A stretch of 60,443 nt of DNA from assembly GCA_045596485.1 (NCBI GenBank), contig JAZOCL010000089.1, positions 1-60,443 of the forward strand, given 5' to 3'. The translations under genes were made by a program, and so were the position numbers. The notes beneath the pieces are model-generated. The model had not been told where the DNA came from. It saw only the letters and a program-made list of their open reading frames with translations, and searched no databases. The DNA comes from Clostridia bacterium (lineage in GTDB: Bacteria > Bacillota > Clostridia > Monoglobales > Monoglobaceae). Position 1 is the first letter of the stretch; each line of letters opens with the position of its first letter. Shown here piece by piece: positions 2,186 to 18,393 of this stretch.

Positions 2186-2578
2186 TTATTTTTTTTCATA
2201 GCTCAACAGCTCAAGAATTTTTTTGTATAAATCCTTGGGGAGCTCGTGGCAGATTGCGTGCGTTTTGCCGTGACATATAATAAGGTTTTCGGTGATGCCG
2301 CATTTGAAAAAGCTGTTTATGAAGTCTATATATTCTGATGTGATAGGCGTTTCTACCGTTTTGAAGCAGAAAGTGGAGGAGGAATCGTAGCAGTCTATTA
2401 TGTCAAGGGGAGAAACACGAAGCGCGTGAGCAAGAAGCTTGATTTTGTCGCTACGCATATTTTTTATGTAGCCGCTTTCCCACTTTTTTACAGTGCTTTT
2501 GCTGACGCCTACCAGCTTTCCTACTTCTTCAAGGGTAAGTCCCAGTTCTTTTCGTCTTTGCTTTATGTCAAAAAACAT
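2186..2578 (-). CDS. XRE-family HTH repressor (cI-like)
   Basis: N-terminal HTH_3 signature (RRKELGLTLEEVGKLVGVSKSTVKKWESG). Divergent from the cro-like gene. Confidence 0.8.
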   Translation of the reverse strand: MFFDIKQRRKELGLTLEEVGKLVGVSKSTVKKWESGYIKNMRSDKIKLLAHALRVSPLDIIDCYDSSSTFCFKTVETPITSEYIDFINSFFKCGITENLIICHGKTHAICHELPKDLYKKILELLSYEKK

Positions 2579-2644
2579 AATGATTTATCCTTCCTTTTTA
2601 GTATTATCTCTTTTGTCTTTCTACTAATTTTACTAAAATTATCG

Positions 2645-2738
2645 CCCTAGAAAACGGCGTAACACCGTTTTTCGCAGAATGACTTCTGCGACTTTCAAAC
2701 TTTTTGTTTGAAGGCTGCGCTTGATTTTCATTATAACA
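2645..2738 (+). repeat. half copy (domain I, three hairpins) of the multi-hairpin repeat family
   Basis: AAACGGCG-taa-CACCGTTT, CGCAGAA-tgac-TTCTGCG and CTTTCAAAC-tttt-TGTTTGAAGG occur in the same order and spacing as hairpins H1-H3 of the 6561 copy, with changed but still pairing stems. The copy ends in ATTATAAC. Confidence 0.6.
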
Positions 2739-2797
2739 CAAGAAATTTGTAAATGCAACTTGTTTTTACAAAAAAGTAAAAATATGTTAGTTATCTA

Positions 2798-2826
2798 TTG
2801 ACAAGACTGTAAAAAAATGGTAATAT
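2798..2826 (+). promoter_or_regulatory. early rightward promoter of the phage-like cluster
   Basis: TTGACA (2798-2803), 17 nt, TAATAT (2821-2826). TATTGACA occurs twice (2796 and 2823), and an 8-bp inverted repeat TTTGTAAA/TTTACAAA (2746-2772) lies just upstream as a candidate operator. Confidence 0.55.
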
Positions 2827-2856
2827 TGACAGTGCGAAAAACAGGAGGTGAGTCAT

Positions 2857-3060
2857 ATGGATGCTGAAAAGCTGAAAATGAAAATAAAGAAAAAAGGATT
2901 TTCGGCAAAAAAGCTTGCGGAAAAAGCGGGAATTGAAAGAAACGCCCTTGAAAGAAAGCTGACAGGGACAGAAGACTTTTTGCTTTGGGAAATTATAAAA
3001 ATTTCAAAGCTGCTTTCGCTGGAAAACAAAGAAATGCTGAATATTTTTTTTGACGGATAA
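2857..3060 (+). CDS. small HTH protein (cro/antirepressor-like)
   Basis: The AGGAGG RBS at 2844-2849 favours the ATG at 2857 (the ORF track starts at GTG 2848). The GFSAKKLAEKAGIERNALERKL segment is HTH-like. Position is divergent from the repressor. Confidence 0.6.
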   Translation: MDAEKLKMKIKKKGFSAKKLAEKAGIERNALERKLTGTEDFLLWEIIKISKLLSLENKEMLNIFFDG

Positions 3061-3090
3061 GTTTCCTAAAGGAAACAAAATTTTTGGCAG

Positions 3091-3285
3091 GTGGTGAAGA
3101 TGGGAATAGAGCATTCTGAAATTTGGGAGACTGAAAGATTTGGAGGTGCGACAAAGGACAGCGAGGTTTTTTGTTTTTGCTGTGGACTTGTTTTGGAAGA
3201 GAAAGAAGTCCTGAGTGACAGATTTGGACGTTGCTTTTGCGGCATCAGGTGCAAAAAGATTTTTTACGAAGGAGAAGGTTTATGA
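3091..3285 (+). CDS. small cysteine-rich hypothetical protein (possible zinc ribbon)
   Basis: 64 aa with CFCC...CFCGIRC cysteine clusters. The stop overlaps the next gene's start. No family recognised. Confidence 0.4.
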   Translation: MVKMGIEHSEIWETERFGGATKDSEVFCFCCGLVLEEKEVLSDRFGRCFCGIRCKKIFYEGEGL

Positions 3286-3650
3286 CAAAAAAGGAGCTTA
3301 TGCAATGCTTTTATCTTAATCGGGAGATTATGAGTGACACAGAGGAATTGGTTAATCTGAAAATCATAGCCAGAGACGGAAATGGGTTTGAATTTCACGA
3401 CGAAGAGGAGATAAAAAGACGAGAGAAAAGAATTGTTGAAAAAATCAGACGGTGCACAGAGCTCAAAGACAGAATTGAAAAATTTATAAATTCCATCGAT
3501 GACAGTCTCACCAGACAGATTTTTTATTACAGGTTTGTGAAATGTATGCCCTGGAAGAAGGTCAGCTATATGACAGGGGGATATAACAGCGATGAGGGTG
3601 TAAGAAAAATTGCTGAAAGGTACCTGAAGTCAATTGAGAAGAATAAATAA
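3282..3650 (+). CDS. phage sigma-70 region-4-like transcriptional regulator (late-gene activator, DUF1492/RinA-like)
   Basis: ATG at 3282 follows GGAGAAGG. The C-terminal part (LTRQIFYYRFVKCMPWKKVSYMTGGYNSDEGVRKIAERYL) resembles sigma region-4 HTH proteins placed just before terminase genes in Firmicutes phages. Confidence 0.55.
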   Translation: MTKKELMQCFYLNREIMSDTEELVNLKIIARDGNGFEFHDEEEIKRREKRIVEKIRRCTELKDRIEKFINSIDDSLTRQIFYYRFVKCMPWKKVSYMTGGYNSDEGVRKIAERYLKSIEKNK

Positions 3651-3699
3651 AGCTTGTCCGATTTGTACGCAAATTGCTGATATAATTTAATTAAGATGA

Positions 3700-3981: not shown

Positions 3982-3983
3982 GC

Positions 3984-5186
3984 GTGAGATACTACAAAAA
4001 TCTTACCCGAAAGCAAAATCTGCTGATGCAGCGTGCAAAGGGCGGGCTCAAAAGAATAAACATTCTTCACGGAAGTGTCAGGTCGGGAAAGACCTGGATA
4101 AGTCTTGTGCTCTGGTGCGTGTGGATACGCAATATGCCAAAAGACAGGTGCTATCTTATGACCGCAAAGACCCTGACAACCCTGAAACGCAACTGCCTTG
4201 ACCTTTTGGAGATTCTTGCCGGACGGAACAATTTTAAATATTCAATATCAAAAAAAGAGGGGGTTCTTTACGGAAGAAAAATTTATCTTGAGGGAGTTAA
4301 CGATGCGGGAGCAGAGAGCAAAATCAGGGGAATGACCCTTCAGGGGGCATACTGCGATGAGGTTACACTTTTTAACGAGGAGTTTTTCAGTATGCTGCTG
4401 TCACGACTTTCGGAGCCGGGGGCAAAGCTTTTTGGAACAACTAATCCCGATAATCCAAATCATTGGTTCAAGGTGAAGTATATTGACCGCAAGGACGAGC
4501 TGGATTTCTTTTTGATGGAGTTCTTGATAGATGACAACACCTTTCTTGACCCCCATTATGTTGAGGAGCTGAAAAAGGAGTATACAGGAGTCTTTTATCG
4601 AAGGTTTATTCTTGGGGAATGGTGCAGCGCTGAGGGGCTTGTTTATCCTATGTTTGATAAAGAGCTGCACACCCTTGACGAGATTCCGCAGCCTGTTGGG
4701 ATGGCAGAGTATTATATTTCGGTGGACTATGGAACGCTGAATCCTTGCAGTATGGGGCTTTGGCGTCTGGACGACAGATGTGCGGTGAGGCTTAGGGAAA
4801 GCTATTATTCGGGCAAGCAGCAAAAAAAGCTGCTTACCGATGAGGAATATTATGAGAGGCTGGTAGCTCTAGCGGAGGGCTTTGACATTAAATGCGTAGT
4901 TATAGACCCCTCTGCTGCCAGCTTTATTGCAACAATCAGGAGGCATGGAGAGTTCAGCGTGAGAAAGGCAGACAACAATGTTCTCAACGGAATCAGGATT
5001 ACGGGAAGTCTTTTAAAAAGCGGAAAGCTTTTGGTGCACAGCTCCTGTGAGGATGCAATCCGTGAGTTCGGTACTTATTCCTGGGATGAGGAGTCGGAGG
5101 AGGACAGGGTTGTTAAAGAGTTTGACCACGCTATGGATGACATCAGATATTTTTGTGCCACGGTGGCCGAAAAGCGGCTGCTATGA
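3984..5186 (+). CDS. terminase large subunit (PBSX-type)
   Basis: Walker A GSVRSGKT, Walker B-like YCDE, and a C-terminal nuclease-like region (VIDPSAASF...DHAMDDIRY). 400 aa. Confidence 0.9.
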   Translation: MRYYKNLTRKQNLLMQRAKGGLKRINILHGSVRSGKTWISLVLWCVWIRNMPKDRCYLMTAKTLTTLKRNCLDLLEILAGRNNFKYSISKKEGVLYGRKIYLEGVNDAGAESKIRGMTLQGAYCDEVTLFNEEFFSMLLSRLSEPGAKLFGTTNPDNPNHWFKVKYIDRKDELDFFLMEFLIDDNTFLDPHYVEELKKEYTGVFYRRFILGEWCSAEGLVYPMFDKELHTLDEIPQPVGMAEYYISVDYGTLNPCSMGLWRLDDRCAVRLRESYYSGKQQKKLLTDEEYYERLVALAEGFDIKCVVIDPSAASFIATIRRHGEFSVRKADNNVLNGIRITGSLLKSGKLLVHSSCEDAIREFGTYSWDEESEEDRVVKEFDHAMDDIRYFCATVAEKRLL

Positions 5187-5232
5187 AGCTGGTGCGGAAT
5201 ATATATGTAAGTTTTGACGGGAGGCAGGAAAG

Positions 5233-6582
5233 GTGTTTGAGAACATCAGAGAATTTTTTGGAAGGGTGAGAAAAAGTATGTTTGACAAAACGGTGATTGG
5301 TTCGGCAATTTCTTCGGAGATTGCTGTGTCGGACGAAATGAGCGGAGCAATCAGGCTCTGGAAGACAATGTATGAGGAACAGAGCGGACTTCATCTGCCT
5401 GCGGCAATTGCCTTTGAGATGGCGAGGCTGATTACGCTGGAAATGGAGTCGAAGCTTTCGGGGAGCGCACGAGGAGAGTTTCTTGATGAAAGCTACAGGG
5501 CTGTGATTGAGAATATAAGAGTTCCCGTTGAATACGGCTGTGCAAAGGGTGGACTTGTTATGAAGCCTTATGTTTCAGAGGGCAGGATTTTGGTTGATTT
5601 TATTCAGGCTGATAAGTTCTTTCCTACCGAGTTTGACGAAAACGGCAAAATCAGAGGTGCGGTTTTTGTTCAGACCAGAGCCAAGGATGGGAAATTTTAT
5701 ACCAGACTTGAAAAACATCGGTTTGTGGGAAAAACCTATGAGATTTCTAACAGAGCTTTTTGCAGCACAAACCGTGATTACCTTGGCAGAGAGATTTCCC
5801 TTGGTGAGGTTGAGGAATGGAAGAATCTTTCGGAGAGTCTTTCGATTTGCAATGTGAAGGCACCCTTGTTCGGGTATTTCAGACCTTCGATAGCCAATAC
5901 TGTTGACCCGTCTTCACCTCTTGGAGTGTCGGTTTATGCCAATGCGGTGAATCTTATTGAGGATGCGGACAGACAGTATGAACGCTTTTTGTGGGAGTTT
6001 GAAAGCGGTGAGCGTGCCCTCATTGCAAACAGTATGGCATTCAAGCGTGACAGAGACGGAAGACCAAGGCTTCCTGACAGAAAGCTTTATCGCACTATGG
6101 ATGTGGAAGATATGGACTTTTTTAAGGAATGGTCGCCGCAAATTCGGGAGGATGAGTTTTCAAAGGGACTTAACAGAATTTTCAGGCAGATTGAGTTCAA
6201 CTGCGGCTTTGCTTACGGAACTCTTTCGGAGGTCAGCGACTCGGAAAAAACCGCCGAGGAAATCCGTGCATCCAAGCAGAGAAGCTATGCAACCGTTTCG
6301 GACAACCAGAAGGCACTAAAGAATGCTCTCAAGGAGCTTGTTTATGCAATGGATGTTTGGTGTACTCTTTATAATCTGGCACCAATGGGCGAATACAGTC
6401 TGTCCTTTGACTTTGATGACAGCATTGCGGCAGACAGAAGAGCTCAGTTTGAAGAAAAGCAGGCCTTGGTGAACAACAAAATTATGGCACCCTGGGAGTT
6501 CAGAATGTGGTACTTCGGTGAGGACGAAGAAACAGCGAAGAAAAATATTGCTGATATAATCATTGACGTGGAAACGGCGTAA
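5233..6582 (+). CDS. portal protein
   Basis: 449 aa, directly after TerL and before scaffold/MCP, with size and position typical of SPP1-type portals. The last 7 codons and the stop lie inside the repeat element. Confidence 0.8.
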   Translation: MFENIREFFGRVRKSMFDKTVIGSAISSEIAVSDEMSGAIRLWKTMYEEQSGLHLPAAIAFEMARLITLEMESKLSGSARGEFLDESYRAVIENIRVPVEYGCAKGGLVMKPYVSEGRILVDFIQADKFFPTEFDENGKIRGAVFVQTRAKDGKFYTRLEKHRFVGKTYEISNRAFCSTNRDYLGREISLGEVEEWKNLSESLSICNVKAPLFGYFRPSIANTVDPSSPLGVSVYANAVNLIEDADRQYERFLWEFESGERALIANSMAFKRDRDGRPRLPDRKLYRTMDVEDMDFFKEWSPQIREDEFSKGLNRIFRQIEFNCGFAYGTLSEVSDSEKTAEEIRASKQRSYATVSDNQKALKNALKELVYAMDVWCTLYNLAPMGEYSLSFDFDDSIAADRRAQFEEKQALVNNKIMAPWEFRMWYFGEDEETAKKNIADIIIDVETA

Positions 6583-6735
6583 CGCCGTTTTAGCGGAATT
6601 TCATTCCGCAACTTTCAAACTAAAGGTTTGAAAGCCACGAATGATTGCAATAAAGTCGGCTTGTGAAAACACAGTTTTCACAATGGTTTGCTAAATTTAG
6701 CAAACTGAAATATTAAAATATTTCACCGACGTATA
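6561..6735 (+). repeat. multi-hairpin repeat, copy 1 (two cloverleaf-like domains, six hairpins); candidate MITE or structured ncRNA
   Basis: Domain I is closed by CATT..CGTGG / CCACG..AATG and holds H1 6571-6591, H2 6593-6609 and H3 6612-6634. Domain II is closed by GTCGG 6655-6659 / CCGAC 6726-6730 and holds H4 6661-6683, H5 6686-6705 and H6 6706-6725. There are 2 mismatches over the first ~170 nt against the reverse complement of 9331-9505. Confidence 0.85.
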
Positions 6736-6843
6736 TTATACTGCAGTAACTTTGTTAAATTGTCCGGGATGACGATAAACTAACAATCCTTTGCAGAAAG
6801 AAACTGCGTTAAAAAACTGAAAATAAGGAAGGAGTTCATAGCT

Positions 6844-7404
6844 ATGACAAGAGACGAGTTGAGAGGAATTATTGAGGGAATATCTGACGAACAGCTAAAG
6901 AAAATTCTTGATATTAATTCCGCAGACATCGGAAGGGTTAAGCTTGGCACTGAAAAAATAAAGGCTGAGCTTGACGGGGCAAATCTGAAGATTTCGGATA
7001 TGGAAAAGGAAATGGAGTCTTTAAGACAAGGTCAATGTGAGGCAGAAGAAATGAAAGTAAAGGTTGAAGAGCTGCAAAAAGTCATTGACCAAAGAAGACT
7101 TGAAGACGAGGCTCGGGCAAAGGAGGCTGCCTTTGAGGAAAGATTTTCGGCAGCGGCAGGTGAGGCTAAATTTTTGAACGACTATACCAGACAGGGAATT
7201 TTTGCTTTGTTTCAGGAGGCTCTTGAGGCAGAGGAAAATCAGGGCATGTCGGACAGCGAGATTTTTGCAAGTCTCACAAGGGACGCAGTCAATATTTTTG
7301 AAGCCGAAAAGGATGTTCCCTCGGTGGTTGCTTCGACATCGGGCTTCGGCGGGGATTTGAGCCGCGGCGATGTTCGGGAGATTATGGGTTTGTCACGTGA
7401 ATGA
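6844..7404 (+). CDS. phage scaffolding protein (GP20-like)
   Basis: Coiled-coil, acidic 186-aa protein between portal and MCP. The N-terminal LKKILDINSADIG region resembles the Phage_GP20 family. Confidence 0.7.
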   Translation: MTRDELRGIIEGISDEQLKKILDINSADIGRVKLGTEKIKAELDGANLKISDMEKEMESLRQGQCEAEEMKVKVEELQKVIDQRRLEDEARAKEAAFEERFSAAAGEAKFLNDYTRQGIFALFQEALEAEENQGMSDSEIFASLTRDAVNIFEAEKDVPSVVASTSGFGGDLSRGDVREIMGLSRE

Positions 7405-7446
7405 GGAGAGTAAAACTCTTCAATATTAATTTTCGGAGGAAAAATT

Positions 7447-8319
7447 ATGGCTAATGCAATTGAAAAATTCAAGAAGTATATTGACACTCTTGACGAGGTG
7501 TATAAGGTGGCATCCGTTACCTCGGTGCTTGACGGCAACAACCGTTTGGTGAAGATGGGTGCAAATGCAAATGAAATTATTATTCCTAAAATGTCAATGG
7601 ATGGTCTTGCTGATTACAGCCGTGAGAACGGTTACGTGGGCGGAGATGTTACGCTCACAAATGAAACTGTCACCTTCAATTATGAACGCGGACGTTCATT
7701 CACCATTGACGCAATGGACAACGAAGAAACAGCAGGTGTTGCCTTTGGTCAGCTTTCGGGAGAGTTTATCCGCACAAAGGCGGCTCCCGAGATTGATGCC
7801 TTTCGTTTTGCACAGTATGCAGGCACAGAGGGTATTGCCAAGGTTGCGGCAAATCTTTCGGAGGCTGATGCCACACTTGCGGCGCTTATTGCAGCCCAAA
7901 ATGCAATGGATGAGGCTGAGGTTTCAATGGAAAGCAGAATTCTTTTCATTACACCCACGCTTTATAACGGTGTTATGAACATTGACACCACAAAGTCAAA
8001 GGCAGTTCTGGATTCCTTCAGCCAGATTGTGAAGGTTCCCCAGAGCAGATTCTATACCGCTATCAATCTTTTTGACGGTTCAACAGGCGGTGAGGAAGCA
8101 GGTCACTTTGTTAAGGCTGATGAAGGAAAGAACATCAACTTTATGATTATCGAAAAGTCTGCGGCAATTCAGTATCAGAAGCATTGCGTGAGCAAGGTTG
8201 TTACACCCGAGGAAAACCAGTCTTCGGATGCGTGGAAGTTCTTCTACCGTGCTTACGGTATTGCAGATGTTTATGAAAACAAGGTGTGCGGAGTTTATCT
8301 CCACCACGCTGAAATCTAA
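7447..8319 (+). CDS. major capsid protein
   Basis: 290 aa immediately after the scaffold gene with a strong RBS (GGAGGA). Composition and position are typical of SPP1 gp13-like MCPs. Confidence 0.8.
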   Translation: MANAIEKFKKYIDTLDEVYKVASVTSVLDGNNRLVKMGANANEIIIPKMSMDGLADYSRENGYVGGDVTLTNETVTFNYERGRSFTIDAMDNEETAGVAFGQLSGEFIRTKAAPEIDAFRFAQYAGTEGIAKVAANLSEADATLAALIAAQNAMDEAEVSMESRILFITPTLYNGVMNIDTTKSKAVLDSFSQIVKVPQSRFYTAINLFDGSTGGEEAGHFVKADEGKNINFMIIEKSAAIQYQKHCVSKVVTPEENQSSDAWKFFYRAYGIADVYENKVCGVYLHHAEI

Positions 8320-8349
8320 TTGACCGATACAGGTTTTGGGAGGATTATT

Positions 8350-8463
8350 GTGCGATTTGTAGGACTTGTGAAGGCAGCAGCCAAAGAGAAAGCTGCCGCA
8401 AAAACTGCGAAAAAGCCAAAGACCACGAATAAAGAAAGCGGTGATAATGGTGCAAAGGCTTGA
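8350..8463 (+). CDS. possible 37-aa lysine/alanine-rich small protein (not in the ORF track)
   Basis: A GTG at 8350 follows GGGAGGA. The translation is VRFVGLVKAAAKEKAAAKTAKKPKTTNKESGDNGAKA. Support is read-through only. Confidence 0.3.
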   Translation: MRFVGLVKAAAKEKAAAKTAKKPKTTNKESGDNGAKA

Positions 8464-8800
8464 TGTGAGCTATGAATACTACTTCAATATTTATAACTGC
8501 GGACATCAGGGTGACCTGAGCCGACAGGACTTTGAACGCTATATTTGCCGTGCGGAAAGAGAGCTTGAGGGGTATTTTGTCCTTGAAAGAGCTACGGACT
8601 CGCAAAAGGAGTCGGTTTGGCTTTGTGCCTGCGAGATTGCAGAGGTGCTGCATAGGTTTGACTCTCTTGATTCGGTGAAGAGCGAGACTATTGACGGGTA
8701 TTCGGTTACATATTCCGACAGAGGCAGCCTTGTTACAAAAATCCGCAGAATTGTTCTCAGACGGCTGGGAGGTACCGGACTTTTGTTTGCGGGGGTGTAA
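8441..8800 (+). CDS. head-tail connector / DNA-packaging adaptor protein
   Basis: 119 aa in the position after MCP, with a size typical of gp6/gp15-like connectors. Confidence 0.5.
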   Translation: MIMVQRLDVSYEYYFNIYNCGHQGDLSRQDFERYICRAERELEGYFVLERATDSQKESVWLCACEIAEVLHRFDSLDSVKSETIDGYSVTYSDRGSLVTKIRRIVLRRLGGTGLLFAGV

Positions 8801-8802
8801 GT

Positions 8803-9126
8803 ATGCTGAAAAACGGTGTTGCCACAATTTTTACGCTTGACCCAAAGGGCGAGAGGTTTGTCAAAAAGGGCGTTTTTGATGCGTGGATTTACCACCAAAA
8901 AAGGCTCCGGACAAATGAAAACGGTGTTTATTGCAGGGATAGCTTTGACGTGAGAATTGCTCTTTGTCTTGTTGATGAAATCCTTGAGGGAGACCTGATT
9001 TATTTTGGAGGGCTGGACGAGGCGGATTTTGCTGTGGCGAAATGCAGAAGAGTTGCAGTTGTGGGAAAGAACTGCCACGGAGCTAATCCCCATTGGCATT
9101 TACAGGCGGAATATGACTACAGATAA
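8803..9126 (+). CDS. head closure / head-tail adaptor protein
   Basis: 107 aa, tightly packed after the connector gene. Positional assignment. Confidence 0.45.
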   Translation: MLKNGVATIFTLDPKGERFVKKGVFDAWIYHQKRLRTNENGVYCRDSFDVRIALCLVDEILEGDLIYFGGLDEADFAVAKCRRVAVVGKNCHGANPHWHLQAEYDYR

Positions 9127-9325
9127 TGAAGGTATCTTAGGGAAAAACGTTAAAAACGTTTTTCCTCGTCAAAATAACATTTTGACGAGGAAATTGCAAT
9201 GCAATTTCCCGATACTTCATTGCAACGAGGTTCTCGAAAATTGTTCTTTAAACAATTTTCCAAGTAGCAAATGCCTTGCTACACTGAAACAGCGTTATCA
9301 CGCTGTTTCGCTAGAGAACACTCGT
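9125..9325. repeat. dense nest of at least 7 consecutive hairpins in a 200-bp non-coding gap, including a large palindromic element at 9125-9221
   Basis: An outer stem AATGAAGGTATCTTAGGGA (9125-9143) / TCCCGATACTTCATT (9207-9221) encloses hairpins at 9143-9163, 9164-9190 and 9190-9208. Further hairpins lie at 9237-9260, 9264-9282 and 9287-9309. Confidence 0.75.
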
Positions 9326-9330
9326 TATAA

Positions 9331-9505
9331 TAATTGTCGGTGAAATATTTTAATATTTCAGTTTGCTAAATTTAGCAAACCATTGTGAAAACTATGTTTT
9401 CACAAGCCGACTTTATTGCAATCATTCGTGGCTTTCAAACCTTTAGTTTGAAAGTTGCGGAATAAAATTCCGCTAAAACGGCGTTACGCCGTTTCCACGT
9501 CAATG
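9331..9505 (-). repeat. multi-hairpin repeat, copy 2 (inverted relative to copy 1)
   Basis: Its reverse complement equals 6561-6730 except for two loop substitutions (H2 loop C/T, H4 loop C/T). It is flanked by a perfect 7-bp direct repeat GTTATAA (9324-9330 and 9506-9512). Confidence 0.88.
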
Positions 9506-9952
9506 GTTATAAGGAAGAAAGGTGAAGAGATTTTGATTGATGAGATGGTGAAGTATCTTTCCGGGTGTCCTTACCTGGACAAGGTCGGAATAAAAATTAA
9601 TTATCTTGAGGGCAAGCCCCTTGCCTTTTCCCTTAAAATGCTGCCCACAGAGCCTGTTATGAAGCGGTATGCGGACGGCGGTGCGGTCTGTGAGGCTCGG
9701 TTTGCATTGTGTTTCAGGCAGGAATACAGCCGTGCCGAAGCCGAAAACCGTGCGGCGGCTGAGCTTTGTGAAAATGTTGAAGCCTGGATTTGTGACCAGA
9801 ACAACAAAGGAGAGCTGCCTGATTTGGGAGATGGAGTGAAGCCTCTTTCACTTGCGGTGGCAGAGAGCTTTGGGATTACCCCTACGGGCAGCATTGACGC
9901 AAGGTTTGAGGCGGAGCTGCGGTTGGTTTATTTTGTTCAATACGTGGGTTAA
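9503..9952 (+). CDS. neck / tail-completion protein (start uncertain)
   Basis: The ORF track starts at 9455, inside the repeat. ATG 9503 (also within the repeat end), TTG 9533 and ATG 9545 are alternatives after AAGGAAG/AAAGGTGA. Its position before the major tail protein supports the call. Confidence 0.45.
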   Translation: MVIRKKGEEILIDEMVKYLSGCPYLDKVGIKINYLEGKPLAFSLKMLPTEPVMKRYADGGAVCEARFALCFRQEYSRAEAENRAAAELCENVEAWICDQNNKGELPDLGDGVKPLSLAVAESFGITPTGSIDARFEAELRLVYFVQYVG

Positions 9953-10021
9953 TTTTTGTGCAGAGGGTGCGGCAAGTGGTGTCTGCACTCTCTGCCTGTG
10001 TTTTCAGAAGGAGGAAATTTT

Positions 10022-10513
10022 ATGTCAGAAATTATTAAGAGATACAAAAAGCTGGCGTTTTTTGGAGTTCCCGAAACGGGCAATGACGATTCGGCGAGCT
10101 ATGTTTTTTACCGTATGAAGGGCTTTGATGAGATTTCGACCTCAAAGAATCCCAGAGAATATTCAAGGCAGTATGTTGACGAGGAGTTTGAACAGACCGA
10201 TGTGGTGGGCTATAACCCGTCAATTACCTTCGGGTTTGACAGATTCAGCGGTGACCCTGTTCATAATGATGTTATTGAGATTTTCAATAAGGAAAAGGTC
10301 GGTTCCGATGCGGTGAGACCCATCATTATGGTGGATATGGCAAGTGATGAGAAGTCGGCTATCAAAAGAGACTTTGCGGTTATCGCCGAAAATGAGGGAG
10401 ACGGTCTGGATGCATATAAATACAGCGGAACTCTGAGAGTTAAGGGCGAAAAGGTCTTTGGTACTGCTCAGAGCGACGATGACTGGCAGACCTGCACCTT
10501 TGTGGAGGAATAA
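10022..10513 (+). CDS. major tail protein
   Basis: ATG at 10022 after AAGGAGGA. 163 aa, directly before two chaperone-position genes and the tape measure. Confidence 0.6.
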   Translation: MSEIIKRYKKLAFFGVPETGNDDSASYVFYRMKGFDEISTSKNPREYSRQYVDEEFEQTDVVGYNPSITFGFDRFSGDPVHNDVIEIFNKEKVGSDAVRPIIMVDMASDEKSAIKRDFAVIAENEGDGLDAYKYSGTLRVKGEKVFGTAQSDDDWQTCTFVEE

Positions 10514-10516
10514 TTT

Positions 10517-10855
10517 ATGAAAAAGGAATCGGAATTCAAGAAAAAGACGGTGATTTGTGAGCTTCTTGGACACAAAGCTGAAATTGCTGTAAGCAGCAAA
10601 ACTTCTGTGCTGTGCGAGAAAATAAAAAACGAAGCGCGGGCTTTGCTGAAGGAGCTTGAGGAAGAGCCTCAGGGTGACTGTGAGAATGCGAGGATTGCCA
10701 AATTTTTTAAAAAAAGCATTAAAGCTCTTGGGGGAGAAAAACTGTTTTTTGAGGCATTTGCAGAGAAGGAGGCTTCTGTGGCAGAGCTTTCAGGAGTCTT
10801 ATGCTGTATAATCTCAGCTCTGGGAGAAGCTCTTGCTGAGGATACGGAGGCGTAG
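10517..10855 (+). CDS. tail assembly chaperone (gpG position)
   Basis: 112-aa acidic, helical protein between the major tail and TMP genes. Confidence 0.5.
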   Translation: MKKESEFKKKTVICELLGHKAEIAVSSKTSVLCEKIKNEARALLKELEEEPQGDCENARIAKFFKKSIKALGGEKLFFEAFAEKEASVAELSGVLCCIISALGEALAEDTEA

Positions 10856-10861: not shown

Positions 10862-11431
10862 GTGAAAAACAGATTTTTGACTTATGCCGAAAAGGTTGAA
10901 ATTGGTGGAAAAGAATATGACATCAATACCGATTTTTCGGTGTGGATTGAAATTGAGCAGCTGCTGATATATTCTGACGGCGATTATGGCAGCAGGCTTG
11001 CAAAGGTTCTCTCGCTTGCCTATGCTGTTTTGCCTGAGGACCCCAAAGGAGCGGTGGAGAAGGTTTTATGGTTTTATGCTTTGGGTAGAGAGCCTGAGAA
11101 TTCGGGTTACGATTTGCCCCCGGCTCCCGTTTTTGATTTAATGGAGGATTTTGAATATATTCGTGCAGGTTTTTTAAGTGAGTTTGGCATTGATTTGCTG
11201 GAGACAAATATGCATTGGTGGCAGTTCAGAAAGCTTCTTTCGTGTCTTGGTGAGGACTCAAAGTTCTCAAAGATTGTGGCATACCGCACGACAGATACGG
11301 CAAAAATCAAAAATCGTGAGGCCAGGTTGTTTTTTGAGAGAATGAAGAAAAAATACAAACTCAAAGACAGGCGCAGCCCTGAGGAACGCGAGACAGAAAC
11401 CGCCTTGAAGCTCGAAACGCTTTTTTCTTGA
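10862..11431 (+). CDS. phage Gp15-family protein (second chaperone position)
   Basis: The N-terminus (FLTYAEKVEIGGKEYDINTDFSVWIEIEQLL) resembles the bacteriophage Gp15 family that lies before TMP in Firmicutes siphoviruses. Confidence 0.55.
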   Translation: MKNRFLTYAEKVEIGGKEYDINTDFSVWIEIEQLLIYSDGDYGSRLAKVLSLAYAVLPEDPKGAVEKVLWFYALGREPENSGYDLPPAPVFDLMEDFEYIRAGFLSEFGIDLLETNMHWWQFRKLLSCLGEDSKFSKIVAYRTTDTAKIKNREARLFFERMKKKYKLKDRRSPEERETETALKLETLFS

Positions 11432-11510
11432 GTACGGTTCTTTTGAGGAATTGCAGAGACAGACGAGGTGTTTGTCTCTGCAGAAAATCTGATTTAAAGG
11501 AAGGACTAAT

Positions 11511-12710
11511 ATGTCATTTGATTTTCAGAAATACATAGAAAATCTGGAAGCAGAGGCTGCAAAAAATGATATAGGCAAAATGCTTGCATCAGGAATCGGT
11601 GTTGGAATCAGCCAAAATTCTTATCTGGCAATTACTGCTATGGAGAATGTGTATGTTGAGCTGGAAACACTGACAAAAAATGCAGAAAAGCTTGATAAGA
11701 AACGCCGTGAGCGTGAAGTGGACAACCTTAAAAACTGTCTTGAGCTGGAGCTGATTTCGGAGCAGGAATATTATGAAAAGCTGAAGCAATACCGTGATGA
11801 GAACCTGAGACAGGGCTCTGACGAATGGTATAAATATACAGAAGAGATCATCGGCTACAACAAGCGTCTTATGGAAGAAGCAGCAGAGCAGCAGATTAAG
11901 GCAGTTAAAAAAATTCAGTCGCTTCAGCAGGAGCTGAAAGAGCATCTCATTGGCAAGGATGAGGATTGGTATTCTTCATATAAAGTTACTTTTTTGGGAA
12001 TCAATCCTAATGGTAGTGACGCTGTTTTTCATAAAAAAACACTGGAGGATTTTGAAGAAGAAATCAGACTTCTTGAAAGATACCGTGATGCCATTCTGAA
12101 GCTGAAGGCGTTGGGAAATATTCCTGACGGAGTTTTTACGGCTTTCGGCAAAATGGATGTTTTGGAGGCAGTTGAGACTGCTGAAATGCTGCTTTCGGTT
12201 GATGAGAAAACCCGAAGCAGATTTGTTGACGGGTATAACACCCGCAATGCTCTTGCTGAGACTATTGCAGGTCAGCTGAACGGAATTGTTAATAAGGAAG
12301 AGCTGGAGGCAGCAGGAATTTCTTCTGCTGAAAGCTTTAACAAAGGTTTTTTTCAGGCAGACGGTGATGAAAAAACACAGTTTGTAAAGAAGCTTGAAGA
12401 AAGCTTTGAAAGCGTTCCCGAAAGCTATTACAGCCTTGGGGAGGAGTCGGGAAGCGCCTTTGGAAAGGGTTTTCACGGTCAGGTTTCGGGTGTTGTGGAG
12501 CAGGCAAAGGGGTTTATGCTTTCAGCAATGAATGAGATTACGGCTGAACTTGCGGCTATTGCTGCAGACTTTGCAAGGTTGGTGAAGACGGGAGACTCGA
12601 ATATTTATAACACCACATATACCTTCAATTCGTCAAGAGACACAACTACTGCACAAATTGCGGCGGCAAAAAATGCAAGTGCAATGGACAGAGTGAGGGG
12701 GATAAGATAA
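11511..12710 (+). CDS. tape measure protein (short, 399 aa)
   Basis: Long coiled-coil N-terminal half, positioned between the chaperones and the distal tail protein. Confidence 0.6.
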   Translation: MSFDFQKYIENLEAEAAKNDIGKMLASGIGVGISQNSYLAITAMENVYVELETLTKNAEKLDKKRREREVDNLKNCLELELISEQEYYEKLKQYRDENLRQGSDEWYKYTEEIIGYNKRLMEEAAEQQIKAVKKIQSLQQELKEHLIGKDEDWYSSYKVTFLGINPNGSDAVFHKKTLEDFEEEIRLLERYRDAILKLKALGNIPDGVFTAFGKMDVLEAVETAEMLLSVDEKTRSRFVDGYNTRNALAETIAGQLNGIVNKEELEAAGISSAESFNKGFFQADGDEKTQFVKKLEESFESVPESYYSLGEESGSAFGKGFHGQVSGVVEQAKGFMLSAMNEITAELAAIAADFARLVKTGDSNIYNTTYTFNSSRDTTTAQIAAAKNASAMDRVRGIR

Positions 12711-13567
12711 TGAGCCTTACAATTACATACAAAAACGAGCTGGGAATGGTGACAATGCAGGGCGGGGGCGATGCTTCTTCGTTTCGGATAACTGCAATCG
12801 AAGGGCTGGGGCTTGTCAGCAGAGAGTATAGCACAGCGGTTTATTCGGGGTATGACGGTCAGGAAACTCTGAGCTCAAGAGCCGAAGCCCGAACCATTAC
12901 AATCGGTCTTGAGGTTATGGATAAGGATGTGACAAAGGCTGTGCGCTCCGCTCTTCAGGTGCTTGGCCGTGAAGGAACGCTATATATAAAAAGTGAGAAC
13001 ACAGACAGGCGGATAAGGTGTAGTCAGGTATATGCTCCTGATATTACCAGAGTTCTTCGGGGCGAGATTGCCACCTTTGCTCTGCAGCTTGTCTGTGACA
13101 GCCCGTACTTTGAGGACGGCACAGACACGGTTGTTCCCCTTTATCAGAGAACAAAGCTCCTTGAAACGCCCTTCACCCTTCCTGCGGTGTTTGGCAACAT
13201 TGTTGTTGGAGCAACCGTAAGGATTTTGGGTACGATTTCGGTTGAGCCGATAATCACTCTGTATTATCCTTCGGCTTTGGAAGGAATTGAGAGCATTGTC
13301 ATAAGAAACGAGACCACAGGTGCGTCAATTCAGCTTGATTATGCGCCGCAGGCCGATGATACGGTTACTATTGACATCAAGAACCGCAGAATTTCAAGCT
13401 CGGTAAGCGGAAACCTCATAAACTATCTGTCGGAGGATACCTTTTTGGGAGATTTTGTTCTGGTTTACGGTGTAAATATTCTGTCGGTGGATTTGGGAGA
13501 TGTGACCTCGGGCTTTACAATTGAATGCCGATACAACAATCTTTACAATGAGGCGGTGATTGTGTGA
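12710..13567 (+). CDS. distal tail protein (Dit, Sipho_tail-like)
   Basis: 285 aa, start overlapping the TMP stop. The N-terminal pattern (ITYKNELG...FRITAIEGLG) is typical of phage tail family proteins. Confidence 0.65.
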   Translation: MSLTITYKNELGMVTMQGGGDASSFRITAIEGLGLVSREYSTAVYSGYDGQETLSSRAEARTITIGLEVMDKDVTKAVRSALQVLGREGTLYIKSENTDRRIRCSQVYAPDITRVLRGEIATFALQLVCDSPYFEDGTDTVVPLYQRTKLLETPFTLPAVFGNIVVGATVRILGTISVEPIITLYYPSALEGIESIVIRNETTGASIQLDYAPQADDTVTIDIKNRRISSSVSGNLINYLSEDTFLGDFVLVYGVNILSVDLGDVTSGFTIECRYNNLYNEAVIV

Positions 13568-14694
13568 GGGATGTTCTTTTTTATGACTTCGACTTTAACG
13601 TTCTCGCAGATTATCCACGATTTATTTCGCTGAACATTGACAGGAATTATTGCGGCTTTGGTACGGCGGAACTGCATTTTTCTTTGAAGGATTCAGAGAT
13701 TATAGAACTGCTCGAAGCTAATCCCTATTTGTTCTTTGTGGCAGGTGAAAATGCGGCAATCGTGACCGGGTGGAGAATTGAAGAGGATATTGCCATATTC
13801 GGCAGAACCCCTGAATGGCTTTTGACAAAGCGCGGACTTGAGCCTTTTTCGCAAACGGGAAAAACTCCTGAGGTGATTGCCAGAGCTGCTGTGACCTCTG
13901 CTGCAGGCGACTTTTTGACACTTGGAGAGCTTTCAGGAGTGGGAGATGCACAGGATTATTCCACGGACAAGGTTAGAGTTCTTCACGATGTGGTCTGTGA
14001 GGTTCTGAAGGATCAAAATCTTGGGTTTAAGGTTGTTGCAGATGTCAAGACGAAGCAGTTTATCTTTTCGGTATTTTCAGGAACCGAAAAGCAGGTTTTG
14101 CTCTCGCCTTCAAACAGAACGGCTTATGATATGCAGTATACAGTTGAGAAACAGGATGCAGTCTCCAATTCGGGCTGGTTTTTGAGAAAGCTGGTTGATA
14201 TGGGCGAATGGAGCGCATCGGCGAACTCGCCTAAGCTTACGAACGGTGTTGCGAGTAATGCTTTCACCTATTACAAAATAACAACGGCAAGCAGCTCACG
14301 CTTTGGGCTTTCTTGTGTTAAGGGTGAATATCTTTATTGTGACAGCCGTGACGGTGTTTGGAAGACAAGTGCCGAAAAGCCTGCGGATGCCTGGGATTAT
14401 ATTGAAAATTGCGAATTGACAGGTGCAAAGAAATGGGAAGCGGTTTTAAGCGGAACAAAAACAGAGACTGAAGCAGCTATGGAGCTTGCTCAGCGGACAA
14501 AAAAAGAGTCATCGGCAGCTCAAACCAAGGGCGTGGTGTATGGCGAGGATTATCTTCTTGGAGACATTGTCAGGGTTCAGGTTGAATTTGGTGACTTCAG
14601 GAAGGCAGAGAAAAAACGCATAACCTCGGTGAGTATCTATTATGACGTAGATAAATCGGGTGTTGTGCCGATTTTTAACAGTTTGGAGGAATGA
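13564..14694 (+). CDS. Siphovirus Gp37-like tail/baseplate protein
   Basis: The N-terminus (LFYDFDFNVLADYPRFISLNIDRNYCGFGTAELHF) resembles the ReqiPepy6 Gp37-like family. It overlaps the Dit stop. Confidence 0.55.
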   Translation: MRDVLFYDFDFNVLADYPRFISLNIDRNYCGFGTAELHFSLKDSEIIELLEANPYLFFVAGENAAIVTGWRIEEDIAIFGRTPEWLLTKRGLEPFSQTGKTPEVIARAAVTSAAGDFLTLGELSGVGDAQDYSTDKVRVLHDVVCEVLKDQNLGFKVVADVKTKQFIFSVFSGTEKQVLLSPSNRTAYDMQYTVEKQDAVSNSGWFLRKLVDMGEWSASANSPKLTNGVASNAFTYYKITTASSSRFGLSCVKGEYLYCDSRDGVWKTSAEKPADAWDYIENCELTGAKKWEAVLSGTKTETEAAMELAQRTKKESSAAQTKGVVYGEDYLLGDIVRVQVEFGDFRKAEKKRITSVSIYYDVDKSGVVPIFNSLEE

Positions 14695-14697
14695 TAA

Positions 14698-15588: not shown

Positions 15589-15602
15589 AGGGGGGATATT
15601 TT

Positions 15603-16451
15603 GTGCTTGAATTTGAGGTTAAAAATCAAACGATAAAAAGGACAGATACTTTTAACGCAGTTGCCGACAGCCGCAACTATCTGAGGGCTAAATTCAGTCT
15701 TTCGGAGGAATGGCAGGGGGATGTTGTTGCGGTGTTCGGTTACGGCGGCAGCTTTTTTCAGCTCTTGCTTGATGAAGCCGAAAGCTGCATAGTCCCTTTT
15801 GAGGTAATAAAGGCACCGGGGTTCACGGTTTCGCTGTTTTGCGGTGAGGAACGGCTGGTGACCGCAAATGTACTTTGGGTTGGCGTGGAAAAATCGGGGC
15901 TTGAAGATGGAGAGGTTCCTCAGACGCCCACGCCTACTGTTTGGCAGCAGTATATGAAAGAAATGCAGGAACTTATAGACAACGGACTTCCATACATTGG
16001 TGACGACGGCAATTGGTGGCTGTATAACACAGAGCTGAAAAGCTATGAGGACACAGGCATTACCGCAAATGGCTACACTCCACAACGGAGCGTTGACTAT
16101 TGGACTGAAGAGGATAAGGCGGAGATAAAAAGTGATGTTGCTCCGTTTGTTGTAAATATTGCTGTTGCGGGTGACGGAAGCATCACAGTAGACAAAACCT
16201 TTGAGGAAATAACGGCAGCACATAATGATGGCAGGGTTGTGCTGGGAATTCACGGCATAAGTGTTTTGACCCTGATTACTCTTTCGGCTTCGGTAGTTGG
16301 TTTTTTGCAAATTATCAATGAAGGTTTCTGTATTTTTTTCTGTAATTCCTCGGATGTTTGGTCAACATCTGTAGTTAATATAGCAAGAAAAGAGTATGTT
16401 GACGAGTCAATCCAATCTGCAATTCTTGAAAGCTGGGGGACGGCGATATGA
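15603..16451 (+). CDS. tail fibre-like protein
   Basis: GTG at 15603 after AAAGGGGGGA. It contains an IGDDGNWW motif common in Firmicutes prophage fibre proteins. Confidence 0.4.
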   Translation: MLEFEVKNQTIKRTDTFNAVADSRNYLRAKFSLSEEWQGDVVAVFGYGGSFFQLLLDEAESCIVPFEVIKAPGFTVSLFCGEERLVTANVLWVGVEKSGLEDGEVPQTPTPTVWQQYMKEMQELIDNGLPYIGDDGNWWLYNTELKSYEDTGITANGYTPQRSVDYWTEEDKAEIKSDVAPFVVNIAVAGDGSITVDKTFEEITAAHNDGRVVLGIHGISVLTLITLSASVVGFLQIINEGFCIFFCNSSDVWSTSVVNIARKEYVDESIQSAILESWGTAI

Positions 16452-17215
16452 GTACACAACAGGAAAAATTCAAGGCAATAGCCGATAAAATCAGGGGACA
16501 TCTTGGAACAGATGAACCCATTGCTCCCGATGACTTTGTGACAAAGGTTGACGAGGTTTATGAAGCAGGAAAACAGGCACAGTATGACGAGTTCTGGGAC
16601 ACTTATCAGGCACCTATGCTTGACGGTAAAAATGTGCCGTATATGTTTGCGGGTAGTTGCTGGAACGGTGACACATTTTATCCAAAGTATGACATAAAGC
16701 CTCACTATGGTATGGGTTTGTTCAATTATTTTTCGTGGGATGTAGTGCCGTGGATTGACCTTGCTCAAAGACTGGAAGAATGCGGCGTAATCCTTGACAC
16801 ATCGGAAACGCTTACTTCTTTGATGTTTAGTCAATGCTTTGTTACAAGAATCCCGAAGATAGATGCAACCTATACAAATTCATTGGACAGAACCTTCAGA
16901 AGCACAACAGCATCAATAATTGATGAGCTTGTCTTGAAGGCTGATGGAACAAATACGTTTTCGGATACTTTTCGGGGATGTTCTTATCTTGAAGAAATCA
17001 GGATAACGGGAATAATCGGACAAAACGGGTTTAGTGTGTCAGACAGTACGAGGCTCTCATACGACAGCCTTATGAGTATAGTAAATGCACTTAAGGATTA
17101 TTCAGCAGACACAAGCGGAGCATCTTGGGTGGTGACCCTTGGTGCGACAAACCTTGCAAAGCTTACCAATGAAGAAAAGGCAATTGCGACACAGAAAGGA
17201 TGGAGTTTGGCGTAA
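16448..17215 (+). CDS. tail-tip protein with LRR-like C-terminal half (candidate receptor-binding protein)
   Basis: 255 aa, overlapping the preceding stop. FSQCF...RIP, FRGCSYLEEIRITG resemble BspA-type LRR units. Confidence 0.4.
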   Translation: MSTQQEKFKAIADKIRGHLGTDEPIAPDDFVTKVDEVYEAGKQAQYDEFWDTYQAPMLDGKNVPYMFAGSCWNGDTFYPKYDIKPHYGMGLFNYFSWDVVPWIDLAQRLEECGVILDTSETLTSLMFSQCFVTRIPKIDATYTNSLDRTFRSTTASIIDELVLKADGTNTFSDTFRGCSYLEEIRITGIIGQNGFSVSDSTRLSYDSLMSIVNALKDYSADTSGASWVVTLGATNLAKLTNEEKAIATQKGWSLA

Positions 17216-17400
17216 TGAAAAAAACAATAATTGAATTGACAAGGCTTACGGCATCAGAGGGAATGGTTCTCACAAACGGCGAGGCTTTCGGAAAAGAGAT
17301 TTATCTTGGCTGTAATGACAGCCCCGACAATTGGAGAGAGATAACCGAGGCGGAGTATGATGAAATACGAAAGTCAGTTGAGGAGGAAGCTTTATTATGA
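17215..17400 (+). CDS. small hypothetical phage protein (XkdX position)
   Basis: 61 aa between the fibre genes and the holin. ATG at 17215 overlaps the preceding stop. Confidence 0.35.
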   Translation: MKKTIIELTRLTASEGMVLTNGEAFGKEIYLGCNDSPDNWREITEAEYDEIRKSVEEEALL

Positions 17401-17837
17401 CAAATGTAAAAGCGATAATTTGCACAGTATTCGGCGTAATCGGCGGAATGATTGCAAAGCTGTTTGGAGGATGGACAGAGGATATGGTAACCTTGCTTGT
17501 GCTTATGACCGTTGACTTTGTTATGGGTCTGATTATAGCAGGGGTGTTTCATAACAGCAACAAGTCGGCATCGGGAAATCTGGATAGCCGTGCAGGGTGG
17601 AAGGGACTTTGCAAAAAGGGTGTGACTCTGTTGTTTGTGCTGATAGCACACAGGCTTGACATAGCCCTGCAGACCGAATACATAAAGACGGCAACAATCA
17701 TAGGTTTTATTTTAAATGAGTTAATTTCAATAGTTGAAAATGCCGGGCTGATGGGGGTGCCGCTTCCTGATGTTATTATCGGCGCTATTGATATTTTAAA
17801 GCACAAAAAGGAGAGAGGCTGGATTGAAGATAAATGA
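17397..17837 (+). CDS. holin (phage_holin_4_1 / toxin-secretion holin family)
   Basis: 146 aa with three or more hydrophobic segments. The WKGLCKKGVTLL...IVENAGLMGVPLP motif is typical of this holin family. It lies immediately before the endolysin. Confidence 0.8.
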   Translation: MTNVKAIICTVFGVIGGMIAKLFGGWTEDMVTLLVLMTVDFVMGLIIAGVFHNSNKSASGNLDSRAGWKGLCKKGVTLLFVLIAHRLDIALQTEYIKTATIIGFILNELISIVENAGLMGVPLPDVIIGAIDILKHKKERGWIEDK

Positions 17838-18393
17838 TGTGAAGTATGCCTGGAAGGGGAATCTTTCAAAGCGAAGCACCACCAAGTTTATAATTCTTCA
17901 TCACCGTGCAGGCACAGGTGATGCGCTCAGCATACATAACGGTCATCTTGCCAACGGATGGAGCGGTATAGGTTATCATTTTTATGTGCGAAGTGATGGC
18001 AGCGTATTTCGCGGAAGACCAATTGCCACGGTGGGTGCTCACTGTACGGGATATAATGCTGAAAGCATAGGTGTTTGCTTTGAAGGAAATTTTGAGACAG
18101 AAAAAATAATGCCGCAGGCACAGCTTCGGGCAGGTAAGGAGCTGGTTACTTATCTTTTGAGTCTTTATCCAAAAGCAGAAGTGAAAAAACACGGAGACTT
18201 TGGAGCTACAGCCTGTCCGGGCCGAAGCTTTCCATTTGAGGAAATAAAGAAAGGAGAGCTTGAAATGACTGTTGACGAAGCTGTTGAAATTGTTCAGGCA
18301 AAGGCAGGACTTGAGGACGGAACAATTGAGTTTTTGCTGTGCTATAAGTATGGCGAGGAGCTTGTGCTGAAATTGGCAGAGGCTATGGTTTAG
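17824..18393 (+). CDS. N-acetylmuramoyl-L-alanine amidase endolysin (Amidase_2/PGRP)
   Basis: IILHHRAG...GYHFYV...GAHCTGYNAESIGVCFEGNF...ACPG zinc-amidase signature. Confidence 0.9.
   Translation: MKINDVKYAWKGNLSKRSTTKFIILHHRAGTGDALSIHNGHLANGWSGIGYHFYVRSDGSVFRGRPIATVGAHCTGYNAESIGVCFEGNFETEKIMPQAQLRAGKELVTYLLSLYPKAEVKKHGDFGATACPGRSFPFEEIKKGELEMTVDEAVEIVQAKAGLEDGTIEFLLCYKYGEELVLKLAEAMV

Follow-up and report, generated by a model that had tools for sequence, protein, structure and literature searches.

Gene Content and Boundaries of the Cluster

The analyzed window is a stretch of 60,443 nucleotides from a Clostridia bacterium of the Monoglobaceae (assembly GCA_045596485.1, contig JAZOCL010000089.1, positions 1–60,443 of the forward strand). 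It carries at 2186–18393 a phage-like cluster of 16 kb, delineated from the listing of open reading frames (ORFs) together with Pfam, PHROGs, and NCBIfam scans (Table 1). The cluster consists of a repressor/Cro switch, a Cys4 protein, a late-gene activator, and one packed rightward block of head, tail, and lysis genes. The present analysis strongly supports, and we hold with high confidence, the view that the cluster is domesticated, that is, fixed at its locus, vertically inherited, and selectively maintained.

The three family scans bear out a preliminary description of this DNA, which had read the cluster as a complete set of morphogenesis and lysis genes with a switch. They also agree with its statement that genes for integration, excision, and replication are missing: no integrase, excisionase, replication, or recombination family in Pfam, PHROGs, or NCBIfam matched any ORF of the cluster. 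To the right of recD2, the window has 35 non-overlapping ORFs of at least 90 aa, of which 22 were scanned (all of those up to 43 kb and one at 52–53 kb, the 13 unscanned ones sitting at 43–60 kb), and 0 of the 22 is an integrase or replication gene. The two junctions (1991–2200 and 18381–18500) have no word of 8 or more bases in common; att-like repeats are therefore absent, as had been claimed. There is no tRNA gene in the window, and the G+C content of the cluster (0.42–0.47) is like that of its flanks.

Housekeeping genes lie on both sides. The left flank consists of rpsF, ssb, and rpsR, while the right flank contains recD2, a 184-aa ORF, enolase, spoIIE, rubrerythrin, bioY, tatD, and others. 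We have also considered recD2 as a part of the element and rejected this assignment. The gene has its own promoter, a perfect TTGACA-17-TATAAT at 18428–18456, and it is missing from the right flank of two related loci (L028 and L035); it is therefore treated as a linked host gene.

Conservation and Vertical Descent

Relatives of the cluster were traced from homologues of its Gp15-family protein. The Gp15-positive genome loci numbered 287, and a scan with the Gp15 alignment, with one genome per GTDB species, returned 80 loci, against which every protein of the window was searched by tblastn. The cluster is present in the same gene order, as far as the contigs reach, in 29 out of 29 species-representative metagenome-assembled genomes (MAGs; loci L010–L037 and L055), with identities to the window of 74–88% for the large terminase (TerL), 81–89% for the capsid, and 62–79% for the portal. 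Beyond these 29 the split is sharp, the matches being mosaic and of 25–60% identity. The carriers are uncultured organisms labelled as Clostridia, Oscillospiraceae, or Monoglobaceae bacterium, mostly from the guts of ruminants and other animals. Gene lengths are nearly constant among them (TerL 399–409 aa, capsid 289–291 aa, distal tail protein 282–286 aa), which confirms the earlier claim that the reading frames of the cluster are intact. The gene tables of four related loci list no integrase family up to 10 kb from the Gp15 gene in either direction, and a limited tblastn search gave no match to two recombinases of the Clostridioides difficile phage phiCD38-2 in the loci of the family.

The site is conserved mainly on its right side. 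recD2 follows the amidase gene in 15 of the 17 loci with a visible right end, and in several loci the 184-aa ORF and enolase come next, as in the window. The two exceptions are L028 and L035, the latter having topA and dprA in this position. The left neighbor is upp in 10 loci, which makes it the commonest, a peptidyl-prolyl isomerase gene in 4, ribF in 1, and rpsR in the present window only. Such a distribution of neighbors indicates upp/cluster/recD2 as the ancestral site, and the rpsR junction is a later rearrangement in this genome. The cluster had been described as fixed between rpsR and recD2; the recD2 side of this statement stands, while the rpsR side applies to this genome alone. Conservation of the locus and the ratio of nonsynonymous to synonymous substitution rates (dN/dS) of the structural genes had been named in the preliminary description as checks on domestication. 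The first thus gives a syntenic cluster across the 29 species representatives, usually joined to recD2, and the second is given below.

The agreement with the host gene was quantified in pairwise comparisons of 11 genomes containing the cluster together with recD2. Identity in the head and tail-core genes rises and falls with that in recD2 (Pearson r of 0.79–0.97), and at every supported clade the maximum-likelihood tree of recD2 matches that of seven core proteins taken in concatenation. In seven close pairs, the dS values of cluster genes are like that of recD2; for L018–L023, for example, most cluster genes have a dS of 0.17–0.88 vs 0.36 for recD2, with two outliers at 1.3–1.4. Over 143 gene pairs, dN/dS ranges from 0.01 to 0.63 with a median of 0.12, and all 23 genes are under purifying selection. 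The capsid (0.01–0.04) and TerL (0.03–0.07) are as constrained as the host gene recD2 (0.03–0.07), and low values are also obtained for the portal (0.05–0.10), the late activator (0.04–0.10), the tape measure (0.06–0.14), the lysis cassette (0.04–0.18, with 0.05–0.13 for the holin), and the repressor (0.10–0.24). The congruent trees, the dS values, and the dN/dS values together are hard to reconcile with either a decaying remnant or a repeatedly integrating phage. The earlier reading of the cluster as a domesticated element is thus supported by the conserved locus, by co-divergence with recD2, and by purifying selection, and also by the composition of its small terminase (see below).

The distal end of the tail behaves differently. 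The distal tail protein (Dit), the tail-associated protein (Tal), and the protein next to them correlate poorly with recD2 (r of 0.44–0.55), and their tree contradicts that of the host gene with strong nodal support, placing the window apart from its recD2 relatives and L034 and L036 within another clade. The three receptor-binding candidates are the most variable part of the cluster, with dN/dS up to 0.38. The two distal tail genes after Tal and the protein next to it encode 179 to 500 aa across relatives, and L007/L015 have, in place of two of the distal tail genes, one for an 818-aa protein containing a GDSL-lipase domain. From the conflicting trees and the variable lengths we conclude that lineages have exchanged the receptor-binding end with one another, while the remainder of the cluster was inherited vertically.

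Metagenome Contigs and the 182-bp Repeats

The metagenomic evidence consists of assembled contigs of four gut metagenomes. Contigs of related strains skip exactly the two copies of a 182-bp repeat, which is structured and resembles a miniature inverted-repeat transposable element (MITE); both copies lie between genes of the head module and are inverted relative to each other. Since strains of approximately 95% identity are without them, the repeats are recent MITE-like insertions rather than a part of the ancestral cluster. In these strains the contig depth, which is only roughly informative, is similar for the cluster and recD2 (13.7 vs 13.1 in run X1), and no excision joint was seen in the assembled contigs of the four metagenomes. 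In one X1 contig, position 9462 runs back into 6554, perhaps because the repeat misled the assembly.

Packaging and Regulatory Genes

The gene directly upstream of TerL encodes a 93-aa protein in the position of the small terminase (TerS). Its 24 orthologues are 77–95 aa long and have in common the core APLNQLSSVMGTLIDKFG and an acidic tail. It aligns (E = 3e-11) with residues 52–112 of a 130-aa homologue whose gene precedes that of TerL in L060; this related cluster is of ordinary size and encodes a minor head protein and a tape measure of 1358 aa. Residues 9–42 of the latter homologue form a helix-turn-helix (HTH; HTH_28, 25.0 bits, at the gathering score), and a similar N-terminal motif is seen by eye in the L051 homologue, where Pfam does not call it. 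The family of the window starts where the HTH of the L060 homologue ends. These alignments show that the TerS-like protein is without the N-terminal DNA-binding HTH of its homologues and that this domain has been lost, which bears out an earlier remark that the small terminase has no obvious domain of this kind. The HTH of TerS normally reads the pac site. Its absence constitutes the main sequence-level argument that packaging by this cluster would not be tied to such a site.

The repressor of the window, like that of most relatives, consists of an HTH only. Its orthologues are 99–132 aa long, but those in L004/L034 have 217–219 aa and a Peptidase_S24 domain. Such S24-bearing, LexA-like repressors (217–248 aa) are encoded at 1839–2498 in L004, 1730–2383 in L034, and 2240–2986 in L051, which suggests an SOS trigger. 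From the domain composition, the induction route has evidently changed within the cluster family. The Cro-like protein is kept in 12 loci. The Cys4 protein has no match in Pfam; by tblastn, 18 related loci from 16 distinct assemblies encode it in the corresponding place and preserve its Cys motif. Judging from this motif it probably binds zinc, and it is possibly a partner of the late activator, the annotated start of which is overlapped by its gene. The orthologues of the activator begin with MTKKELMQ..., and the true start probably lies near 3282 (ca. 122 aa) and not at the TTG at 3231.

In the tail module, the two proteins in the position of the tail-assembly chaperones are kept in all loci of the cluster family. 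The tape measure, the shortness of which (399 aa) had been pointed out previously, is 383–423 aa long throughout the family except for one truncated 245-aa call. No sheath or baseplate family was found in the cluster with Pfam, PHROGs, or NCBIfam, and the tube, tape measure, Dit, and Tal are of the siphovirus type. The true start of the tail completion protein is probably later than 9455, and an ORF at 9005–9343 was rejected as spurious.

Table 1. Features of the Cluster and Its Right Neighbor (Positions in the Window) and Extents of a Second Cluster Family (Positions in the Respective Loci)
Feature	Position	Strand	Evidence
Xre/CI-type repressor, 130 aa, HTH only, no S24 peptidase domain	2186..2578	-	PF01381 HTH_3 E=3e-14; phrog_8/phrog_4
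Candidate promoter for early rightward transcription, located in the divergent control region; TTGACA-17-TAATAT with TG	2798..2826	+	Consensus scan, 10/12 matches; pattern match only
Cro-like HTH protein, 70 aa	2848..3060	+	PF13443 HTH_26; phrog_1728/phrog_3
Cys4 protein, 64 aa (CxxC...DRFGRxFCxxxC)	3091..3285	+	tblastn
Late-gene activator, sigma-70 region-4-like C-terminus	3282..3650	+	phrog_36 transcriptional regulator E=3e-12; weak TIGR02937 match
Small-terminase-like protein (TerS), 93 aa	3700..3981	+	Directly upstream of TerL; homology to two proteins
Large terminase (TerL), PBSX family	3984..5186	+	TIGR01547 158 bits vs cutoff 105; PF03237/PF04466; phrog_2
Portal, SPP1/A118 type	5233..6582	+	phrog_533 E=9e-124; PF05133
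182-bp MITE-like repeat between portal and scaffold	6554..6737	.	Skipped exactly by related-strain contigs, runs X1 and X3
Head scaffolding protein	6844..7404	+	PF06810; phrog_194
Major capsid protein	7447..8319	+	phrog_422 E=1e-76
Head-tail adaptor	8441..8800	+	phrog_541
DUF6751 connector protein	8803..9126	+	PF20536
Second, inverted copy of the 182-bp repeat	9323..9506	.	Skipped by contigs, runs X1 and X2
Tail completion protein	9455..9952	+	phrog_3266, phrog_3099, phrog_820 for the 9455..10513 pair; NF047353 below curated cutoff, likewise for the pair
Tail tube protein	9956..10513	+	phrog_3266, phrog_3099, phrog_820 for the 9455..10513 pair
112-aa protein in tail-assembly-chaperone position	10517..10855	+	Position
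Gp15-family protein in tail-assembly-chaperone position	10862..11431	+	PF06854 E=9e-34
Tape measure, 399 aa	11511..12710	+	Position
Distal tail protein (Dit)	12710..13567	+	PF22768, phrog_33
Gp37-like tail-associated protein (Tal)	13564..14694	+	PF14594, phrog_538
Three distal tail/receptor-binding candidates, 296, 294, and 255 aa	14698..17215	+	Position; single phrog_19695 match of unknown function
Conserved 66-aa protein in the lysis cassette	cassette 17200..18393	+	
Holin	17397..17837	+	PF05105 E=3e-33
Amidase_2, N-acetylmuramoyl-L-alanine amidase	17824..18393	+	PF01510 E=9e-20
recD2 (YrrC-type helicase), host gene	18489..20681	+	Pfam OB_YrrC, HHH_RecD2, AAA_30, SH3_13
thiT-adjacent second cluster family, L043	3572-17590		
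thiT-adjacent second cluster family, L045	3650-17085		
thiT-adjacent second cluster family, L061	3526-17611		

Relation to Phages and Known Particle Operons

The phage collection contains no relative of the whole cluster, the matches being mosaic, with at most 45% identity for the portal and 71% for the capsid. The best portal matches (41–45%) are to the C. difficile phiCD38-2 group (ca. 41 kb) and to Faecalibacterium phage FP_Lugh (34 kb), while the best capsid match is to Eggerthella phage PMBT5 (30.9 kb; 70%). An 18-kb "Bacteriophage sp." (MT835795, 71% capsid) was considered as a small complete relative and rejected, because this record is part of a contig, mosaic in makeup, and its terminase and portal are unlike those of the cluster. 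With PMBT5 and the phiCD38-2 and A118 groups the cluster has in common, besides the portal and capsid, the Gp15-family protein and the gene order from terminase to lysis. These phages differ, however, in having genomes of 31–41 kb, a minor head protein, tape measures of 798–1716 aa, and replication genes; phiCD38-2 itself has a 235-aa TerS, a minor head protein, the 1716-aa tape measure, large fibers, a helicase, ParA, and recombinases. Judged by its genes, the cluster is a stripped and shortened version of a phiCD38-2-like phage. A functional temperate prophage would differ from it in having an integrase or recombinase, att repeats, and a replication module. An F-type tailocin, which consists of tail genes only, is not matched either, since the cluster has TerL, portal, scaffold, and capsid genes, all under strong constraint.

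RcGTA, a gene transfer agent (GTA) of Alphaproteobacteria, has its lysis and regulatory genes outside its head-tail cluster and is run by host regulators. RcGTA-type agents resemble the cluster in being vertically inherited head-tail clusters of ca. 15 kb under purifying selection, with a TerS that has no DNA-binding domain, and differ in that the present locus has its lysis and regulatory genes inside. We infer an independent origin, as the nearest relatives found are Firmicute siphoviruses. A TerS without a DNA-binding domain has been reported both for RcGTA (Sherlock et al. 2019, as cited) and for FpGTA, the agent of Faecalibacterium (PMC12946183).

Of the systems published so far, FpGTA comes closest to the cluster. 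It is encoded by two podovirus-like operons of 10.5 and 5.5 kb, ca. 125 kb apart, and its particles, which have been shown experimentally, have 40-nm heads with ca. 8.5–9 kb of DNA (PMC12946183). Like the cluster of the window, it is phage-derived, free of an integrase, and kept across the species of a gut Clostridia lineage, and it comprises TerL, portal, scaffold, capsid, and lysis genes as well as a TerS without an obvious DNA-binding domain, a likeness judged from its published description. In contrast, the present cluster occupies one locus of 16 kb and combines a siphovirus tail with its own repressor/Cro pair. The same study detected GTA-like packaging of 4.6–8.9-kb fragments in gut Ruminococcaceae, Oscillospiraceae, and Christensenellaceae, and did not find the loci for taxa other than Faecalibacterium (PMC12946183). 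The preliminary description knew of no element of this kind in the lineage. FpGTA qualifies that statement for gut Clostridia at large; of the cluster of the window, no published description was found in the literature consulted.

Proposed Function

On the basis of the above comparisons, we propose that the cluster descends from a domesticated siphovirus and is kept as a host particle operon for GTA-like transfer of host DNA. Taken as a whole, this statement is held with moderate confidence. Two traits of the GTA class are observed directly, namely a structural cluster without mobility or replication genes, and vertical inheritance under purifying selection. Particle production, random packaging, tail length, the induction signal, and DNA delivery we infer from the gene content.

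The ancestor would have been a siphovirus akin to phages of the A118 and phiCD38-2 groups, whose integration, excision, replication, and accessory genes were presumably lost in the ancestor of an uncultured clade of gut Clostridia, the host keeping the particle operon. The Xre-type repressor would keep the early promoter off. Relief of repression would lead to synthesis of the Cro-like and Cys4 proteins and of the sigma-like activator, the last of which would switch on a single late operon extending from the TerS-like gene to the amidase. The proheads would then be filled by the PBSX-family, headful-type terminase, where a small subunit devoid of the HTH would be expected to let packaging start on chromosomal DNA with little sequence preference. 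A short tail of roughly 60 nm would be joined, the holin and amidase would lyse the producer cell, and the particles would deliver host DNA to related cells in a GTA-like manner.

Several points weigh against this proposal. The AlphaFold2 model of the TerS-like protein is all-helical and weak (pLDDT 62), and neither Foldseek against the PDB nor a profile search of PDB sequences gave a meaningful match for its fold, so that its identity is given by position and by homology to two proteins only. The homologous capsids enclose 31–41 kb, and the head may therefore hold more than the 16-kb cluster if the triangulation number is unchanged; the GTA criterion of containing too little DNA to encode itself may thus not be assumed here. 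No RNA runs holding the capsid gene were found. Finally, the cluster keeps a phage-type repressor/Cro switch, as does PBSX of Bacillus subtilis, a particle that kills without DNA transfer.

Alternative Explanations

The strongest alternative, which we nevertheless consider unlikely, is a PBSX-like killer particle that packages host DNA incidentally and whose selected role is to kill relatives that have no immunity or that have the matching receptor. PBSX has a contractile tail. It is, like the present cluster, a fixed defective Firmicute prophage without an integrase, and both have an Xre-type repressor, a TIGR01547 TerL, and holin and amidase genes; the retained PBSX-family TerL and repressor fit a killing role, and PBSX itself packages 13-kb DNA fragments and kills without transferring them (PMC7667829). 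The exchange of the variable distal tail module against the host tree would moreover be expected under diversifying selection on target specificity. However, PBSX is ca. 28 kb in size, whereas the cluster is half as large and has a non-contractile, sheathless tail of the siphovirus type. There is also no evident immunity or toxin gene in the cluster. The very strong constraint on TerL, portal, and capsid, together with the selective loss of the DNA-binding domain of TerS, speaks for selection acting on the packaging of DNA, a function that a pure killer could do without.

We have also considered site-initiated headful packaging similar to lateral transduction, where packaging starts in or near the element and mobilizes the downstream chromosome from recD2 and enolase onward. 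The headful-type terminase, the lack of excision machinery, the 31–41 kb held by the heads of homologous phages, and the conserved downstream linkage to recD2, the 184-aa ORF, and enolase are all compatible with such a mechanism. It would nonetheless have to operate with a TerS-like protein devoid of the HTH and without any pac-like feature that could be identified, and the right flank is not kept in L028 and L035. We therefore judge it improbable.

Small siphovirus genomes exist, and a temperate phage of this kind that is still mobile, borrows the recombinases and replication of the host, and repeatedly hits one site would account for the retained repressor/Cro switch and for distal tail genes that move between lineages. 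It is, however, very hard to combine with a core tree congruent with that of recD2 at similar dS, with the absence of att repeats and of any whole-cluster relative among collected phages, or with a left flank that differs through host rearrangement while the cluster stays in place, and we assign it a very low probability.

Least credible of all is an inert prophage remnant in neutral decay, which the missing integrase and replication genes and the two MITE-like insertions might suggest, but which is contradicted by 23 of 23 genes being intact in 29 species-level genomes (portal, TerL, and capsid at 62–89% identity), by the dN/dS values, with capsid and TerL constrained like recD2, and by the position of both insertions between genes.

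Other Observations at the Locus

A 13-nt motif, ATGTTGTTT[C/G]AGG, occurs twice at the left junction (2013–2025 and 2123–2135). It was found neither in the related loci nor at the right junction, and we rejected it as an att site because it is seen only in the left junction of the window; it probably arose as a side effect when a rearrangement placed rpsR beside the cluster. A fragment of a BspA-type leucine-rich-repeat protein is located at the left end of the window (3–830), upstream of rpsF. In one lineage (L008/L035, 17264–20554), topA and dprA follow the cluster on the opposite strand. DprA is a DNA-uptake protein, and its adjacency to the cluster may be coincidental.

Other Compact Clusters and Implications

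The tape measure lengths are bimodal over 76 related loci, with one group at ca. 320–503 aa and the other at 658–1830 aa. Distant compact clusters with a TerL 44–48% identical to that of the window lie at ca. 4–16 kb in each of four loci, and no integrase was found in the scanned flanking ORFs of any of them. L038 is preceded by an aminotransferase gene and pyrG, and L052 by an AraC regulator gene. L051 lies between pyk and an S24 repressor gene on the left and pyrC and carA on the right, and L041 between CLC channel and ThiF genes on the left and DUF1015 and Mur ligase genes on the right. A second family with a different TerL starts directly after thiT in three species (Table 1). Its tape measures are 383–387 aa long, it has neither a repressor nor an integrase in these three loci, and on the right it is bordered by rho in L045 and by a radical SAM gene in L061. 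At 80% identity and above, public data contain at least 120 distinct members of the capsid family of the window after clustering at 90% identity. Given this breadth and the distant compact clusters, fixed phage-derived particle operons of compact size look common in gut Clostridia. We tentatively suggest, as a possibility that falls somewhat short of an even chance, that the present cluster is one of several old, independently fixed, integrase-less siphovirus-type operons of ca. 12–16 kb in gut Clostridia, others lying at thiT, pyrG, or pyk, and that together they are the source of the GTA-like packaging of short pieces of host DNA detected by sequencing virus-like particles from the gut. If this is the case, the exchange of the receptor-binding module between species would be a trace of gene flow mediated by such operons.

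GTAs are well characterized almost only in Alphaproteobacteria. A 2026 study found GTA-like packaging to be common in gut Clostridia and assigned a gene cluster to it in Faecalibacterium only (PMC12946183). The cluster described here provides a sequence-defined candidate locus with comparative evidence of host ownership, carried by a widespread uncultured gut clade, mainly of ruminants and other animals, with sister families at other fixed loci. It makes testable whether GTAs of the siphovirus type drive gene flow in anaerobic gut communities, how a host may re-use a phage-type repressor switch, and why the receptor-binding module alone moves between species.

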